A stretch of DNA of 64,000 nt from a virus. Its lineage: Duplodnaviria > Caudoviricetes. The stretch is from positions 1-64,000 of the IMG/VR virus record IMGVR_UViG_3300021426_000068. One strand, 5' to 3'. A program made the translations under genes and the position numbers. This document shows, piece by piece, positions 5,370-20,266 of this stretch (position 1 is its first letter; each line of letters starts with the position of its first letter). A model generated the notes under the pieces. It was not told the DNA's origin. It did not search any database and saw only the letters and a list, made by a program, of their open reading frames with translations.

Positions 5370-5528
5370 TGGAGCCGAGAACAGGATTCGAACCTGCAAC
5401 CCCCTGATTAGGCAAGGTAGATAGAGTTGAACTATCATTTGCATTTCACCACTTTTAATACCCTGCAATCTGTCTCAGTAGATTATTCTGTATCAAGTCA
5501 GGTGCTCTACCGTTAAAGCTACCTCGGC
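5370..5528 (-). tRNA. tRNA-Thr(TGT) interrupted by an 83-nt insert (5411-5493)
   Basis: CCTGA-CTTG|insert|TAA-TCAGG, acceptor GCCGAGG/TCTCGGC, U73, CCA encoded. Confidence 0.85.
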
Positions 5529-7491: not shown

Positions 7492-7612
7492 TGCGGAAGA
7501 ATGGATTCGAACCACTGACACAAAGATTTCCCAAAAACAAAAATTGCTGTTAATTTTTATATTCTAAAAATATTTCTTTAACTTTTGCTCTACCAGACTG
7601 AGCTACTTCCGC
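7492..7612 (-). ncRNA. tRNA-Phe-like body with ACAGCAA module in the anticodon arm (copy 4)
   Basis: GCGGAAG/CTTCCGC-A, normal D and T arms; AAAG...ATTTTTA-G-AATA-TAAAAAT-TA-ACAGCAA...GAA-AT-CTTT. Confidence 0.7.
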
Positions 7613-8168: not shown

Positions 8169-8364
8169 TACTGGGTAGGGGAATCGAACCCCTATTACAA
8201 GAATGAGAGATTGTTGTAAGAGTTGAACTTACTCGTGGAGTTTTTCTATCCACTTCACCACTTTATTGGTACAACGACTTTCCTGTATTCGTCAAACAAT
8301 CTTTTAATTTGTTCAGGTTTATTCCTGTATAAATCTTGTGTACTAACCTTTATACGAACCCAGT
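8169..8364 (-). tRNA. tRNA-Glu (TTC or CTC) interrupted by a ~124-nt insert (8207-8330)
   Basis: CAAGA-TTT|insert|TCAT-TCTTG; a 1-nt junction shift gives CTC. Confidence 0.8.
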
Positions 8365-11038: not shown

Positions 11039-11206
11039 CGGGTACGGTAGGATTCGAACCTACGACCTGAGGATTAGGTACACTATTCAGATTTGAACTG
11101 AAATTACCAATGTTTAGGTTTCTTACCATTAGAAGATAATGTACTGGTTTATTACGGTGAACCACACCTTATACAGTCCCCTGCACTACCACTGTGCTAC
11201 ATACCC
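11039..11206 (-). tRNA. tRNA-Asn(GTT) interrupted by a 96-nt insert (11077-11172)
   Basis: GGGGA-CTGT|insert|TAA-TCCTC, G73. Confidence 0.85.
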
Positions 11207-13249: not shown

Positions 13250-13405
13250 TCGGGAAGACAGGACTCGAACCTGCGACCCCTGGTTCGGTCTGTATATAAG
13301 ATTCGAACTTATGATACTTCCGTTATTATACAGACTCACCAATTTTTCAGCTATTGGTTAACTGTAGCCAAAACCAGTGTTCTAAACCAACTGAACTACT
13401 TCCCG
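13250..13405 (-). tRNA. tRNA-Pro(TGG) interrupted by an 81-nt insert (13287-13367)
   Basis: CTGGT-TTTGG|insert|GA-ACCAG, C1:G72, A73. Confidence 0.87.
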
Positions 13406-13995: not shown

Positions 13996-14781
13996 TTAAC
14001 TTTCTTTAATATTTTTAATTATTTTTTCTTTCCAATAGTTTCTTCTTGTACTATTTTTATTTTTTGATTTAAATGTTTCTAATTGAGTATCACAATTTGG
14101 ACATATCATTCTAAGATTATCTCTTCTGTTATTTGCAGCATTTCCATCAATATGGTCAAGTACAAAAACTAGTGGCTTACCATTCCATTCTGGTTTACAT
14201 GTGCAACCTTCAATAGCACATTCATAATTCTGTTCTTTCAAAAAGAAATCTTTGAAACTTTTAGGTGTGTATCCGCCATTACAATATTGTTCATTATTTT
14301 CTAAAAATCTTTCATAAGAAATTTTATGTTTATATTTACTTGAACAACTATTGGAACAGAATTTTGTTTGATTACCATTTAATTCTTTATCACAATTTAA
14401 ACAATATTTTTTTACTTTTATTTTTTCTTGAATAATTCGTTTATTCTTACGTTTTTTTAATTTTGTTTTTATTTTTTCTTTAGTTTCGTCACTATGTTTT
14501 CTTCCTTTATTATTATAGGTTGCAGCACAAGATGAACTACAAAATTTTGTTTGTCCACGTTTTAGTTCTTTACCACAATTTAAACAATATTTCTTTTTTT
14601 TCTTTTTATAAAAAGAGAAGTCAAAACCGATTTTTTCCGCAATATCATTTATATAACTGATTCCAATTTTATTATCTGGAATATTGAAATATGAATGTAT
14701 ATCACCTTTTTTCTCAAAAGATTCAAATATTTCTAATACGTTTTTCTTCTTTTCTTCAGTTGAAATATCAATACTATTCAT
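13996..14781 (-). CDS. HNH homing endonuclease (Zn-finger repeats, NUMOD3-like)
   Basis: CLNC...FCSxSC twice, HSDETKEKI, LDHIDGNAANNRRDNLRMICPNC. Confidence 0.88.
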   Translation of the reverse strand: MNSIDISTEEKKKNVLEIFESFEKKGDIHSYFNIPDNKIGISYINDIAEKIGFDFSFYKKKKKKYCLNCGKELKRGQTKFCSSSCAATYNNKGRKHSDETKEKIKTKLKKRKNKRIIQEKIKVKKYCLNCDKELNGNQTKFCSNSCSSKYKHKISYERFLENNEQYCNGGYTPKSFKDFFLKEQNYECAIEGCTCKPEWNGKPLVFVLDHIDGNAANNRRDNLRMICPNCDTQLETFKSKNKNSTRRNYWKEKIIKNIKES

Positions 14782-14855
14782 AATAAATTTGTTTATATAT
14801 AAATAGTATATATTTCGGAAAAAATCAAGATTGAACATGAAAAAATAAACAATTG

Positions 14856-14945
14856 CGGAGGCAGTAGGATTCGAACCCACGCGGCCCTGTTACAAGCCCT
14901 AGCTGATTTCAAGTCAGCCCCCTTCAACCACTTGGGTATGCCTCC
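14856..14945 (-). tRNA. tRNA-Ser(TGA)
   Basis: GCTGA-CT TGA AA-TCAGC, long variable arm, G73. Confidence 0.94.
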
Positions 14946-15118
14946 ATTGGTGACTGGATAAGTTATCACACTACACCAGTCAGTTATGGTTAAATTATTT
15001 CAATTCACATATCTATAATTAACATTATATAATATTTATCAGACTTGTCAATGAACTTATCAAAGTTTTTACAAATATACTAAGAAGTTTTGATATTTCA
15101 AAATATATTTTTATTTTT

Positions 15119-15153
15119 CTGTTTTTTAATATATCAAATACTGTGCCAAACTT
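15119..15153 (-). promoter_or_regulatory. sigma54-like promoter, copy of a 35-bp direct repeat
   Basis: TTGGCACA-GTAT-TTGA; identical to 15531-15565. Confidence 0.55.
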
Positions 15154-15177
15154 TAAAATTTCACAATATTTTTTATG

Positions 15178-15261
15178 TGGCACAGGTGGGAATCGAACCC
15201 ACACTCTCAAATGAGAACAACATTTTGAGTGTTGCGTGTATACCAATTTCACCACTGTGCC
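15178..15261 (-). tRNA. tRNA-Leu(CAA)
   Basis: CAACA-CT CAA AA-TGTTG, long variable arm. Confidence 0.93.
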
Positions 15262-15267
15262 AAAAAT

Positions 15268-15513
15268 AATCTTGAAAATAAACAGGCTTACCTTAGATTT
15301 ACACCTCTCACGGAAGGTTAAGGAAACACCGTCATGTTTTATGCTCGCTGAAGTTTCGAACCCATCAGTATCTTTAAAGCAACCTTAATTACTTTTGTTC
15401 CGACTATACCATTTCACACTCTGTACACAAGCGGTAATTTTATACTTGGTAGCACTCTTTGTCATTTAATTTTTCGTTAGTGACCAACCCTGGGATGTAA
15501 CGTTTTCAAGATT
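15268..15513 (-). ncRNA. candidate structured ncRNA (~246 nt)
   Basis: 11-bp terminal inverted repeat AATCTTGAAAA, internal GGGTTCGAAAC T-loop-like motif, just downstream of a sigma54-like site. Confidence 0.45.
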
Positions 15514-15530
15514 TTTTATTTTTCAAAGAA

Positions 15531-15565
15531 CTGTTTTTTAATATATCAAATACTGTGCCAAACTT
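15531..15565 (-). promoter_or_regulatory. sigma54-like promoter, copy of a 35-bp direct repeat
   Basis: Identical to 15119-15153. Confidence 0.55.
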
Positions 15566-15577
15566 AAAATATCTCAT

Positions 15578-15611
15578 AAAAAAAACCTCCTAAGATGTAT
15601 ACTTGGAGGTT
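15578..15611 (-). terminator. intrinsic terminator (attenuator)
   Basis: AACCTCCAAG-loop-CTTAGGAGG-T8; the 5' arm can alternatively pair with the end of the leader ORF. Confidence 0.75.
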
Positions 15612-15667
15612 GGGAATATATTGTGGTTAGAAACCTATGTGTGTTTTTGTACCTATTTACTATATCC

Positions 15668-15793
15668 CTACTCCAAGTTTTTTTCTCTAAAGTTTCCTTT
15701 AGATGCTTTTGGGTCTACTGATGGCATACCAAACCAATAACTTGTTTGAACCAAGCCATTGCAAAGATTAATATTTGTATTGATATGTCTCAT
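15668..15793 (-). CDS. putative 41-aa attenuator leader peptide
   Basis: MRHINTNINLCNGLVQTSYWFGMPSVDPKASKGNFREKNLE-TAG; last codons overlap the antiterminator strand. Confidence 0.65.
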   Translation of the reverse strand: MRHINTNINLCNGLVQTSYWFGMPSVDPKASKGNFREKNLE

Positions 15794-15934
15794 ATTAGGA
15801 TATTTTTTCAACTATAAATATTTTATTTTTTACAAAAATACATATTTTTTAATAAAAAAACAATATTTTTTGTGAAATTTTTAAAAAAAGTTAAATTTTC
15901 AGGTAAATTTATTCTTTTTCGAATAAATTCATTG

Positions 15935-16005
15935 TGACACATATAGGATTCGAACCCATCTATTCTGTTTTAGGGACAGCTGACCAACCCCTGGTCCAAT
16001 GTGCC
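15935..16005 (-). tRNA. amber-reading tRNA (anticodon CTA)
   Basis: GGCACAT/ATGTGTC-A, GACC/GGTC D arm, CTGT-CC CTA AA-ACAG, normal T arm; C33 is atypical. Confidence 0.7.
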
Positions 16006-16058
16006 ATATTTGGGGATTGATTAAAGGATAATCCCCATAAATCCTTGACAACAATAAG

Positions 16059-16346
16059 TTATTTAACTGTTTCTAAATTTTTAAAAAGTTCACCTGTATC
16101 ATCTTGTACTGCGATTGCAGTTATAGAATAATTTAAATCAGGTTCACGAAATGCAGAGAAACGAATTCCCATTCTTTGAAGTTTGTTAAACCACTTATCA
16201 GTATCAGCATATAAATATATTAAATAGTCATTGTTCCAATCTTGATTTGGATTATTTATCATCCATTGTGCAACTGCATGTCCACCTTGCACACATCCGT
16301 ATACGGGTCTAAGTTTTTTATTCACTAATACGTATAATCTTTTCAT
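16059..16346 (-). CDS. peptidyl-tRNA hydrolase II (Pth2)-like protein
   Basis: LYVLV...VQGGHAVAQW...FREPDL..SITAIA. Confidence 0.7.
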   Translation of the reverse strand: MKRLYVLVNKKLRPVYGCVQGGHAVAQWMINNPNQDWNNDYLIYLYADTDKWFNKLQRMGIRFSAFREPDLNYSITAIAVQDDTGELFKNLETVK

Positions 16347-16980: not shown

Positions 16981-18171
16981 CTAATTTGATATATTTTTCA
17001 AATTTGATTCAATACTATCATTAATATATAAGTTATCAAATTTAACGGTTAACGGAAAGTATTTAAATAATTCACTCACATTTTCGTGAATATTTTCTGT
17101 TATTTTTTCACGTTTTCCCTTATAAATATAATTAAATTCATCAATATTATCAAGTAAATCCCAATGAGTTACAACAAGATTAAGCTTTAAATTATATTGA
17201 CACCAAAAATTGTCTATACAATGTCTATTAAATGCTTCGTTTAATAAATCAAGATTTAAAATACCAGTTTTAAAATTTCCCTGAAATTCATTATACACAT
17301 TAGTTTCATGTTTATTTGTTAAATCGAAATTAAAACCTATTTTATTTGGTTCATAACCATTTCCGTGTCTGGTTAAATATGTTCTTGTAACAAAATAAAC
17401 TTCAGCATTATAAAGACTTTTTTCAAGAAATTTATCGTTAATAAAAGCATTTAGACCAACTTTAGATGGTGTAACATGTGGAAAAAAACCTCTTTCCATA
17501 TCAAGTAACAATCCTTGACTACCTTCAAAAATAAGTACATCAAAAAGTGAAAGTAATAAACCACCACCTGTTATACTAAATATACCACTGTACTCAATAT
17601 TATCGTCAACCATTTTACGATAAAGTTCACCTTCAGGAGAATAGTCTGTTGTTTCATTGTTAGAATAGTAATATAGTTCTAATTCTTCTAATGTTGTACT
17701 TTCTAAAAAATTTTCAGCATTAACATGAAAACCTTCTTTTTCTCTTTTAAAAGTTGGGTATATACCCCTTCCACAAGTACCATCTTTAATGATTTTTATA
17801 TCATTTCTACCACAAAAAACTTCATATGGTGTTATAAATGGTGTTTTTGGCATTACGTAAAGTGGTGGTACATTTTCCATTTTAGTTTTTAAAACTTCAT
17901 ATTCATTTTTCGCACTAATTGGGTCAAAATAAGCTGTTTTCCATATTAAAGTTGGTACTCCTAATAGAACACCGCTACCATAACTTGAACAAATATGTTC
18001 TATATTATTATAATTAACAGTATGTGCTGCTTGTGGCCCTCCGCTAAAGCGAATGACAAGGGGTTTTTTCCCCTCGTCAATTGCTTTTTTGCATAAGTAT
18101 TGTACTGTTACACCTTTACCTTCGTCACCAAAAGCTGAACCCAGTACTATTTTTATTTCTGTATTTTCCAT
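16981..18171 (-). CDS. adenylosuccinate synthetase-like protein (divergent PurA family)
   Basis: GSAFGDEGKG, RFSGGPQAAHTV, IFEGSQGLLLD, VTRTYLTRHGNG. Confidence 0.85.
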   Translation of the reverse strand: MENTEIKIVLGSAFGDEGKGVTVQYLCKKAIDEGKKPLVIRFSGGPQAAHTVNYNNIEHICSSYGSGVLLGVPTLIWKTAYFDPISAKNEYEVLKTKMENVPPLYVMPKTPFITPYEVFCGRNDIKIIKDGTCGRGIYPTFKREKEGFHVNAENFLESTTLEELELYYYSNNETTDYSPEGELYRKMVDDNIEYSGIFSITGGGLLLSLFDVLIFEGSQGLLLDMERGFFPHVTPSKVGLNAFINDKFLEKSLYNAEVYFVTRTYLTRHGNGYEPNKIGFNFDLTNKHETNVYNEFQGNFKTGILNLDLLNEAFNRHCIDNFWCQYNLKLNLVVTHWDLLDNIDEFNYIYKGKREKITENIHENVSELFKYFPLTVKFDNLYINDSIESNLKNISN

Positions 18172-20266
18172 TAAAGAATAACTTCAGGATTAATATGTGT
18201 TTCTTTGTTTAAATCAGTACTTTCAACAATAAGCGGTTTAATATCACTTTTCGTTGTTTGTTCTTTATAACATTTAGTAATAATACCAGCAATAAGTTCA
18301 GGAACATCATCACCATTACTTGATTGTGTATTCACAAAATTATCACCAAGTGCTTGCTTCCACTGACTTTGTACTCTATCTCTTACGCCTGAATAATCAG
18401 ACACATTAATATGAAATACATTCCAGCTTTCACGTGCTTCGTTAAGAATATCATATGCTGAAACATCAGATTGGCCACCACCAAAAAGTTCGTTAATATC
18501 ACGTTTAGGTGTACTTTCAAGAAAAGGTTCGTCACCAATTGTAATAAGGACACCTTTTTTACCATGTTTTTTCAGTGAATCAATATCAGTATGTCTTGCT
18601 GCAACATACCATGCAAGTGAATATCCTTCCAATTTTGTTATCATACGACTTTTTATTCGTATTTCTATAGTTTCTTTTTTACTATAGTTCAGCATATCTT
18701 TTCATCCTTTTAACTATTGTTAATGTTGGATGGGGGACACTCGTGGGAACATTATATTTATTCAGTTCCTATGCGTTACACTACTAAGAAGCCTATTCGA
18801 AATCTTCATTAGTTAGCACGAGATTGTCATCACAGATTTCCTCGTTTTTGCCCCCTTGTAATTCATATGATTCCTCATATGAACGGCAAAATTCTAAATA
18901 TTTTTTGTATTTTCTATCTAAATATATTGTGGAATTTTTATAAATATAATTTAAAAAATTAAAAGCTTTTTTACGTGATAAAGTAAATTGAAAAATGTTT
19001 TTATGTTTACTTGGTGTTTTGTTTTCAAAACATTTTGTTTGTTCCTTAATAGATGTTAACATATCAAATGTTCCTAATATTGATATTTCTTTATTTTTTT
19101 CAGTAAAACAAACACAGCCATCACCGTCAAAATAACCTCTTATAAAGTCTTTTACAAATTTTTGTGGTAATATTTCTTCTTTCGGAAAAGTTAAAATAAG
19201 TGATTTATTTGGGACACAGCCTTTTTCTATTAATGATTGATGAAAATTTTTATTGCGAATTTCCCATCTATATAAATCAAATATTTTTTCTTTTGTTTTT
19301 TTTGGATGATATTTTACATTATTTTCAGTTGATTCAACAAATCTATCAAACTTATGTAAATGTCCAACATCTTTTGCTTGAAGACAAATACCTGAAATAT
19401 ATGAGTTTTTTAAAACATATCCATCAGCATAAAAAAAACCTAACCAATAAGCTTTTTCTTCATTGTCTATTTTTTCAAAAACTTTATCATTAAATCTTTT
19501 TCCACTTTTACTTCCACATAAAACATTATATTGTGGTATAAAATCCTTTTGACTACCTCTAATTTTAATCCCATTAGCAAGCAAATAAAGTCTTATATCT
19601 TTTTTACTACTACCAACTATTACTTCAAGTTGATTTAATGAATAGCCACTTTCGCAGTAAAGTTCAATAACTTTATTTTTTTCAAATTTTTCGATTGTTC
19701 TTTGTAACATATTTATTTATTTTTATTAATAAATAGTTTGAAAAACGAAAAATCTCCTTTTTTTACACCACCAATACAAAAAATTAAGAATAATTATATT
19801 AATTGGAATAATATAATTGTCTACCCTCATTTGCTCCGCCACCAGATTCAATATAAATTGATTTAAGCCACTGTTCTTGAAGTAAATCAGATGTTTCAAA
19901 TTGTCCAACCTGAATAGGTGCAGTATCACATTCGTTGTCACCAACTCCCATGAAACATACCTGAGCATGTTCAACACCTTCGTCCATGATTTTCTTCATT
20001 AATTCTGGAAAACCTTTAGTAATGAGTTTTTTTGGTATATTACCCATACTACCTGTAACATCAAGAGCAATAATAATTGGAAAAGCATTAGGATGTTCTT
20101 CACTATCACGTGATTCTCTAATTTTACCTTTGATGTTCATTTTTTCATCAAGACTTCTCTTAGTAAATACTTCTCTATCAAGATAAGAAGTATCAACAGA
20201 TGCATAAGAAGCGTAAGAACAACTTCTTACGCTTGCATCTGCATATGAATAAACACCGCCGCCCAT
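18171..20266 (-). CDS. vWA-domain protein, spliced (exons 20266-19823 and 18629-18171; 300 aa)
   Basis: MIDAS DVTGSMG; joining gives ...ESGGGANEG|EGYSLAWY...ITIGDE. Confidence 0.85.
18630..19822 (-). mobile_element. group I intron with LAGLIDADG homing endonuclease
   Basis: Exon ends GGT(U), intron ends ...AATTG, in-frame rejoining, P7-like GCATA/TATGC (GTAACGCATAGG...AGATATGCTGAACT). Confidence 0.85.
18793..19710 (-). CDS. double-motif LAGLIDADG homing endonuclease
   Basis: KAYWLGFFYADG and FIRGYFDGDG motifs. Confidence 0.92.
   Translation of the reverse strand: MLQRTIEKFEKNKVIELYCESGYSLNQLEVIVGSSKKDIRLYLLANGIKIRGSQKDFIPQYNVLCGSKSGKRFNDKVFEKIDNEEKAYWLGFFYADGYVLKNSYISGICLQAKDVGHLHKFDRFVESTENNVKYHPKKTKEKIFDLYRWEIRNKNFHQSLIEKGCVPNKSLILTFPKEEILPQKFVKDFIRGYFDGDGCVCFTEKNKEISILGTFDMLTSIKEQTKCFENKTPSKHKNIFQFTLSRKKAFNFLNYIYKNSTIYLDRKYKKYLEFCRSYEESYELQGGKNEEICDDNLVLTNEDFE

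Follow-up and report, generated by a model that had tools for sequence, protein, structure and literature searches.

A short transcription unit in front of a phage tRNA array is read here as a translation-coupled transcription attenuator at the head of that array, with a probability of about 0.55. Comparison with related phages supports the anatomy of the unit, a selected open frame, covarying alternative helices, the position at the array head, and amino-acid sets that are enriched and maintained complete; translation of the leader, termination, the direction of the switch and the stress sensed are what we infer.

The window, meaning the whole 64,000-nt stretch that was analysed, corresponds to positions 1–64,000 of an IMG/VR phage record of 132.8 kb with an estimated completeness of 37% and a G+C content of 27.6%. 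On its minus strand, the order of elements is CTA tRNA, promoter, 41-codon ORF, core, hairpin with U8, sigma54-like motif, 256-nt RNA and tRNA-Leu(CAA). The coordinates, translation and pairing given in the first-pass annotation were all correct on re-check. The elements of the leader unit and its upstream neighbour were assigned as follows.

15934–16005, minus strand: suppressor tRNA with anticodon CTA, the sole tRNA upstream of the leader unit (ARAGORN, Rfam)
15811–15865, minus strand: candidate promoter region of the leader unit, with TTG at 15863–15861, TAnnTTTG at 15840–15833 and TATTTATA at 15820–15813 (repeat and conservation)
15668–15793, minus strand: leader ORF, ATG at 15793 and TAG at 15670–15668, 41 codons with 20 different residues (translation and homologues)
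15735–15761, minus strand: 10-bp hairpin within the leader ORF (kept in L007)
15660–15679, minus strand: R2, the 5' strand of the antiterminator, spanning the last three codons and the stop, AACTTGGAG-TA-GGGATATAG (duplex with R3)
15617–15641, minus strand: near-invariant 25-nt core CACATAGGTTTCTAACCACAAYATA in the loop of the antiterminator, with a small GGTT/AACC hairpin (conservation)
15601–15620, minus strand: R3, the antiterminator's 3' strand; its 3' half doubles as the 5' arm of the terminator (duplex and covariation)
15578–15611, minus strand: predicted intrinsic terminator, hairpin 15611–15584, with R4 as its 3' arm, and U8 15585–15578 (fold and covariation)

Under the proposed mechanism, a host-type promoter (Bacteroidota sigma-A-like) would start a short RNA carrying the 41-codon ORF, and the speed of ribosome transit through the leader would matter, the peptide itself being unimportant. 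A ribosome arriving promptly at the stop would cover R2, so that R3:R4 would form and transcription would terminate at about 15578. With a ribosome lagging upstream, R2:R3 would form first, no terminator would arise, and the polymerase would enter the 256-nt RNA and the tRNA genes.

In total, 66 related loci were retrieved via a neighbouring 100-aa gene, the relatives being phages of 345–413 kb from ruminant and other gut metagenomes. The spacer matched that of L007 at 71% over 616 nt, and over 42 nt of its length it was more than 90% identical to L008 and L009/L010; blastn of the spacer against a phage database returned no match, and a PurA-based search for the locus yielded none. Scans for the core were run with an 18-mer on viral contigs, with a degenerate version, and with the 18-mer on metagenome contigs, and the diverged copy of L012 was added by an nhmmer profile. 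Together, viral contigs (15 units) and metagenomes (79 loci) supplied 55 distinct units with 51 distinct leader peptides, and the family was abundant in ruminant gut metagenomes. Next to the unit, the CTA suppressor recurred in L007, L008, L009, L012 and several metagenome loci. Among more distant relatives, no leader unit was found in the stretch directly past the conserved neighbour gene (L017 and L042) or directly past the suppressor tRNA (L013 and L061).

The promoter motifs that had been proposed just upstream of the ORF were present, of Bacteroidota type and conserved in relatives. The 40-nt promoter motif (repeat family D6) occurred four times in the array region, its motifs were conserved in comparison with L007, and TTG-N19-21-TAnnTTTA lay upstream of the ORF in relatives. 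From the known Bacteroidota −33/−7 consensus, we infer that the region would have promoter activity for the leader unit. RNA contigs from four ruminant gut metatranscriptomes covered the unit; such contigs report presence only, without ends or strand, may include DNA carry-over, and are uninformative for the parts left uncovered. A 323-nt contig matched 15883–15598 and continued for about 37 nt more, ending close to the U-run; another covered 15785–15615, and a thinner one bridged the terminator at a depth of 2.7 versus 7.5. For the attenuator reading, the occurrence of the unit in RNA contigs, one ending near the terminator and a thin one bridging it, is a weak hint.

The leader frame was free of in-frame stops over 40–54 codons in all 15 units from viral contigs (about 10 clades). 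In the same units the other two frames carried a mean of 4.1 stops and one of the 30 was open; given the composition of each sequence, the chance of an open leader frame was 0.01–0.07 per sequence. In the enlarged set, 52 of the 53 leader frames that were found had 27–63 codons and an end before the core; in the L132 variant the leader stop is lost and the frame continues through the core. Alignment of the window with L007 placed gaps of 3 nt inside the ORF and gaps of 10 and 7 nt outside it. The peptide itself drifted: Met1 was the only invariant residue among the 15 homologous peptides, identity to the window peptide was 8–44%, and dN/dS in four close leader pairs was 1.1, 1.7, 1.4 and 0.5, with changes spread evenly across the three codon positions. 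Purifying selection on the peptide sequence, as expected of a conserved small protein family, was not seen by these measures. An open frame with a drifting peptide would be the signature of a frame that needs to be translated while its product is irrelevant.

These data also bear on the idea that the ORF is an ordinary gene for a small protein, equipped with a terminator, in which the diverse composition would reflect the needs of a 41-residue protein. Such a gene would account for a frame that is open and conserved and that has a promoter and a terminator, but the flanking non-coding RNA is conserved far better than the peptide. With Met1 alone invariant and dN/dS near 1, an ordinary small protein was therefore counted out, and we regard it as very improbable.

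Several further properties of the ORF were recorded. The internal hairpin carries one compensatory change in L007, U-A to C-G, in an alignment read by eye. The Glu codons of the window leader lie solely within or adjoining R2. Rfam 15 covariance models run over the leader returned tRNAs and chance-level matches only. The phage record uses the standard genetic code, and TAA ends 84 of its 94 long ORFs, the rare stops being TAG (6 of 94) and TGA (4 of 94); TAG or TGA ends nine of the first 15 leader ORFs. Read-through of the leader stop by the neighbouring CTA suppressor was considered and dropped as a general feature: the leader frame of the window and that of L091 stay open through more TAGs, past the terminator, and the other 13 leaders lack this pattern.

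The claim that the 41-codon ORF encodes all 20 amino acids was borne out by translation. The probability of such a set, for which a computation had been proposed, came to about 0.002–0.02: it was 0.002 for 41 residues drawn from the phage's own proteome composition and 0.008–0.018 in shuffles of the ORF's own bases. Among the 51 distinct leader peptides, 27 contained all 20 kinds and most others 18–19. The peptides were grouped into 17 clades at 40% identity, each clade being weighted once, and the discovery clade was excluded from the clade-level shuffle tests. The P values for completeness are approximate, the clades being distant homologues of one another. The four tests gave the following results.

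Whole-ORF base shuffles: P = 4e-4 for mean z; all-20 clades 4.4 observed, 0.43 expected, P = 1e-3
Within-3-block shuffles: clade mean z +1.07, P = 3e-4; all-20 clades 4.4 observed, 0.44 expected, P = 1e-3
Within-5-block shuffles: clade mean z +1.05, P = 8e-4; all-20 clades 4.4 observed, 0.45 expected, P = 1e-3
Within-codon-position shuffles: clade mean z +0.92, P = 1e-3; all-20 clades 4.4 observed, 0.58 expected, P = 3e-3

Against the pooled composition of the leaders, 5.4 complete clades were observed and 0.8 expected (all 17 clades). This pooled composition is itself flatter than that of the phage proteome, with Trp at 2.1% versus 1.0%, His at 2.3% versus 1.4% and Cys at 2.5% versus 1.4%. 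Within clades, 11 of 23 diverged lineages were complete, compared with 4.5 expected under random refill of the changed positions (P = 4e-4), and a lost residue could be regained elsewhere, as for Cys, which is at position 11 in the window peptide and at position 22 in L136. The all-20 set thus recurs and appears to be kept by selection, as judged from these comparisons. In the first set of 15 sequences the enrichment of amino-acid kinds was borderline only, and the claim rests on the 51 peptides. The set is complete in only about one-third of clades, and in five of the 17 the leaders average 14–17.7 kinds. The number of distinct codons in the leaders was not raised, and no tandem codons for one amino acid (regulatory codons) were found in them, the composition being unusually even. 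Leader amino acids matched the tRNAs of their own array slightly better than those of other arrays (own 0.67, cross 0.64, P about 0.03, uncorrected for kinship, with partial arrays and intron-bearing tRNAs missed); this test is weak because arrays and leaders each cover nearly everything.

Complementarity between the ORF end with its stop and the 5' arm of the terminator, also claimed at first pass, was found. In the window, R2:R3 forms two 8-bp helices of −19.5 kcal/mol (z = −4.8 against shuffled upstream sequence). The terminator stem pairs CCTCC (15609–15605) with GGAGG (15590–15586), plus two further pairs, at −11.2 kcal/mol; it was overlooked by a simple terminator scan because the stem is interrupted. 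An R2 equivalent was present in all relatives examined, and in each of the 13 units that were fully folded a purine-rich R2 paired in two helices with R3 just past the core. Across the 55 units, R2:R3 had a median of −16.4 kcal/mol and a median z of −1.9 against shuffled upstream sequence, and the terminator hairpins ranged from −9.8 to −17.4 kcal/mol and were followed by at least five T. The energies of the R2:R3 and R3:R4 structures were comparable.

In a 12-sequence alignment, 92.9% of terminator stem cells were paired, with compensatory changes in three pairs, and this covariation was reached by none of 500 shuffles and by no slid register. Compensatory changes in R2:R3 were seen at R3 columns 80, 87, 89 and 101; R2 was not alignable by MAFFT, so these pairs were taken from per-sequence duplex predictions, which are biased to pairing and for which the shuffles serve as the control. 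Column 89 pairs with R2 as G-C in five sequences, A-U in five and G-U in two, column 87 changes from A-U to U-A in L084, and column 80 changes twice from G-C to A-U. At columns 87 and 89, R3 covaries with R2 as well as with R4. A strand that covaries with two partners is what would be expected of a two-state antiterminator/terminator switch.

The stop codon lay between 13 nt inside R2 and 29 nt beyond it (median 5 nt, 55 units). In about 80% of units it was no further than 15 nt past R2, the innermost lying 13 nt inside, and in the rest it was 18–29 nt past. A ribosome bound at the stop would cover at least part of R2 in about four-fifths of the units; in the remaining fifth or so, the gap between the end of the predicted R2 and the stop exceeds 15 nt, which puts R2 outside the footprint of a terminating ribosome. 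No region-1 partner for R2 (an anti-antiterminator) was seen.

Conservation on this scale also decides the case of a chance ORF with chance complementarity in an AT-rich spacer. A complete amino-acid set at P of about 0.002–0.02 is not far-fetched among the many small ORFs of a 64-kb window; the comparison refutes it: across 55 distinct units, conservation extends to the ORF, the two helices, the terminator and the position. We give it next to no credence.

The best-conserved part of the unit is the core, although the pairing switch needs no set loop sequence. The core was identical in the window, L007, L008 and L009 and diverged only in L012. Invariance of the 18-mer is by construction in the exact-word scans; the degenerate scan revealed one substitution across the seven free positions, and the flanks CAC and YATA, outside the scan pattern, were constant too. 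The constant flanks, the single substitution and the L012 divergence together indicate that the core is strongly, not absolutely, conserved. Candidate roles are a polymerase pause site, a protein-binding or nut-like site, a seed acting in trans, and a DNA enhancer for the next promoter. A 19-mer scan of 185,579 genomes for a counterpart in hosts gave three matches with unrelated flanks, two of them one near-identical stretch in two Flavobacteriales MAGs.

Conservation of the core primary sequence far beyond the needs of a pairing switch would fit a self-contained, possibly dual-function small RNA gene, with the transcript from promoter to terminator as its product, the core as a seed or protein-binding site acting in trans (on host or phage RNAs linked to tRNA metabolism, for example), the terminator ending the gene, and the ORF and R2:R3 tuning stability or exposing the core on translation. 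The unit has its own promoter and terminator, with a separate promoter-like motif after them, and the 271-nt leader folds unusually stably (z = −4.5). Attenuator-derived RNAs with functions in trans are known, rnTrpL/peTrpL being the precedent (PMC6614838, PMC7968998). In the window and the genome, however, the search for a target complementary to the core gave only chance matches with four mismatches. A small RNA gene would also leave unexplained the alternate pairing of R3 with R2 and R4, the same-strand position at the array head and the maintained complete sets, and we consider it unlikely.

The core could alternatively be a site for the transcription machinery, either a nut/put/boxA-like RNA or a DNA enhancer for sigma54-like promoters, with the ORF as a modulator; a nut-like site would render the polymerase termination-resistant over the long untranslated tRNA array. 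In lambda, pR-cro-nutR-tR1 has the order promoter, small ORF, conserved site, terminator and downstream genes, and the order of the present unit recalls it. In many relatives the core lies about 75–125 bp before the −24 element of the sigma54-like motif, and the core, which contains a short GGTT/AACC palindrome, is conserved in sequence rather than in pairing. The likeness to lambda nutR and to rrn boxA is one of position only: where a long transcription unit begins, a conserved RNA site is flanked by a small ORF on one side and a terminator on the other. No N-like gene was found, and a search for NusG-like genes in this record and those of four relatives (three 100% and one 93% complete) also came up empty. 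The enhancer version is strained by L009 and L073, where the first sigma54-like motif is about 300 nt past the terminator, by L008, L012 and L083, where it is absent from that place, and by motifs inside the array that have no core. The selected open frame and the amino-acid completeness would again be left unexplained, and this possibility is rated slightly below that of a small RNA gene.

Downstream of the terminator, the following features were assigned.

15531–15569, minus strand: 39-nt repeat (family D15) with a sigma54-like TGGCAC-N5-TTG at 15560–15547 (repeat)
15262–15517, minus strand: conserved 256-nt RNA, the first downstream product, ending exactly at the 5' end of tRNA-Leu (RNA contigs and conservation)
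15177–15261, minus strand: tRNA-Leu(CAA), the first array tRNA behind the unit (ARAGORN, Rfam)

About 20 more tRNAs follow tRNA-Leu(CAA) in the window. In 64 distinct elements, all tRNAs within 3 kb downstream were on the strand of the leader, and the 3 kb upstream held no tRNA save the CTA suppressor in some clades; the distribution on the two sides places the unit at the array head. A gap of 27–42 nt with no promoter motif separates the U-run from the first tRNA in L083, L105 and L155, so that the first genes of these arrays would have to be reached from the leader promoter.

In most relatives, TGGCAC-N5-TTG was found 4–30 nt past the terminator, and at tightly spaced loci the first tRNA begins 28–33 nt from the start of the motif, which is the geometry of a −24/−12 promoter. 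In the window, a second copy of the 39-nt repeat lies at 15119–15157, after tRNA-Leu. The sigma54-like motif probably represents the class of promoter from which the array is transcribed. Since a promoter-like motif follows the terminator, the array would not depend on read-through. We speculate that read-through from the leader would supplement the array's own promoters, perhaps early, before their activator is present. The first-pass interpretation was upheld in part. The layout of ribosome-mediated attenuation, described there as established, is supported by comparison, through the open frame, the mutually exclusive and covarying R2:R3 and R3:R4 helices, the stop in or near R2 and the place at the array head; at odds with the simple model are the sigma54-like promoter that the array usually has, a conserved core that the model does not need, and completeness in only about one-third of clades.

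Other copies of the sigma54-like motif, TTTGGCAC-N5-TTGY, are intergenic before genes or tRNAs, at 579, 3997, 15148, 15560, 29516 and 30666 of the window (minus strand). Elsewhere in the genome it occurs at 67892 and 119267 (plus strand), before protein genes, and in L087 up to five copies lie within 1.4 kb. The 256-nt RNA, between this motif and the 5' end of tRNA-Leu, is discrete and abundant, and no Rfam family matched it. The metatranscriptome of the source sample contains a 286-nt contig that wraps round, joining 15517 to 15262 with an overlap of 30 nt, which is what a circular or tandem RNA would give; in a second study, a 252-nt contig covered 15267–15518 at a depth of 46. The termini form an 11-bp helix in the predicted fold, and those of the L007 counterpart look pairable via a different sequence in an alignment read by eye. 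L007, L061 and L045 share conserved blocks of this RNA, and one relative has a form without 121 nt (15311–15431).

Directly behind the leader unit, the arrays of many relatives open with tRNA-Trp and then tRNA-Cys; Trp and Cys are the two amino acids that the phage proteome uses least. Relatives also have further suppressor tRNAs: the first array tRNA of L083 (1679–1751) has the anticodon TCA, and L091 carries two tRNAs with anticodon TTA (2229–2299 and 2483–2555). Four tRNA genes of the window (5373–5528, 7492–7612, 11039–11206 and 13250–13405, minus strand) fit the tRNA model only with insertions of 50–95 nt, which are too short for a group I intron and odd for bacterial or phage tRNAs; in the first, an 86-nt insert lies within the anticodon loop. 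Repeat family D7 occurs in two of these genes (5383–5433 and 11049–11099) and at 8179–8229, adjoining an odd tRNA at 8207–8301. An HNH endonuclease with duplicated zinc-ribbon repeats lies inside the array (13996–14880, minus strand) and a LAGLIDADG homing endonuclease just upstream of the array region (18793–19710, minus strand). A gene of the adenylosuccinate synthetase family at 16981–18171 (minus strand; Pfam PF00709, E = 4e-27) has its best phage matches at about 31% identity, annotated as PurZ-type (2-aminoadenine pathway), and the phage may carry a modified adenine.

In its anatomy, the unit resembles the trpL, hisL, leuL, thrL, pheL and ilvL attenuators, with which it shares a short leader ORF, a terminator before the genes and a competing antiterminator on the 5' arm of the terminator, as well as an ORF end on the 5' strand of the antiterminator and an unconstrained peptide; as in those leaders, ribosome position would choose the fold. 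Unlike these amino-acid-operon leaders, it has no codon runs for a single amino acid and no region 1 was seen, its frame tends to hold all 20 amino acids, it precedes tRNAs and small RNAs rather than biosynthetic enzymes, and it has an invariant loop core and usually a promoter after the terminator. In mef/mel(msrD), a leader ORF precedes antibiotic-resistance genes and the attenuator senses ribosome stalling (PMC4335068). There, as in the proposed phage unit, read-through would follow slow translation of the leader from any cause; mef/mel(msrD) involves drug-stalled ribosomes and protein genes, whereas the phage unit shows no sign of a drug, and its coverage of the amino acids is suggestive of a gauge of decoding supply. 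T-boxes likewise tie the choice between terminator and antiterminator to tRNA status, but they are untranslated and bind uncharged tRNA directly, whereas the phage unit has a selected ORF; the Rfam covariance model found no T-box match in 15100–16100 at E up to 10.

The closest biology in print is the long tRNA array of Anabaena (trn operon), which is induced under translational stress and has the repressor TrcR at its promoter (PMC8421152, PMC10272220). In both that operon and the proposed phage unit, a supernumerary tRNA array is switched on when translation is impaired; in contrast to control by TrcR, the candidate control in the phage is a cis-acting switch of leader ORF and terminator, and the two Anabaena papers make no mention of an attenuator, leader or terminator. 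Our literature search found no published account of tRNA operons or phage tRNA arrays being controlled by a leader peptide, no published leader selected for all 20 amino acids and no published case of tRNA genes sitting behind a translated leader.

What the attenuator would sense can be addressed from its amino-acid content. In a frame that tends to hold every amino acid, the ribosome would be slowed whenever almost any charged tRNA ran short, and the leader would thus gauge overall decoding capacity. In the strict form of this proposal, the leader is selected for at least one codon per amino acid, and any shortage of charged tRNA would open the antiterminator, whether caused by starvation or shut-off of the host or by a defence nuclease that cleaves tRNA. 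The host polymerase would then read from the early promoter into the phage tRNA array, as a homeostatic feedback on tRNA supply, and at the invariant core the polymerase would pause, or a factor would bind, to keep ribosome and polymerase in step. The first-pass annotation had inferred a 'universal tRNA-damage sensor' and had looked to homologous leaders for conserved completeness and pairing: in these the pairing covaries and completeness is enriched and maintained, and it is not universal. Maintained completeness lends real support to a universal decoding sensor and makes it plausible, and in its strict form we hold it tentatively, at less than even odds.

Leader-peptide attenuation has so far been known for amino-acid operons and T-boxes for synthetase genes. 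The unit offers a testable handle on phage tRNA arrays, whose regulation was not found in print, and the conserved 18-mer of the core is an easy search handle for the family. If the proposal is true, the unit would show how giant phages time the deployment of their private tRNA sets, would tie phage tRNA arrays to host defences that deplete tRNA, and would represent a compact natural sensor of overall decoding capacity.
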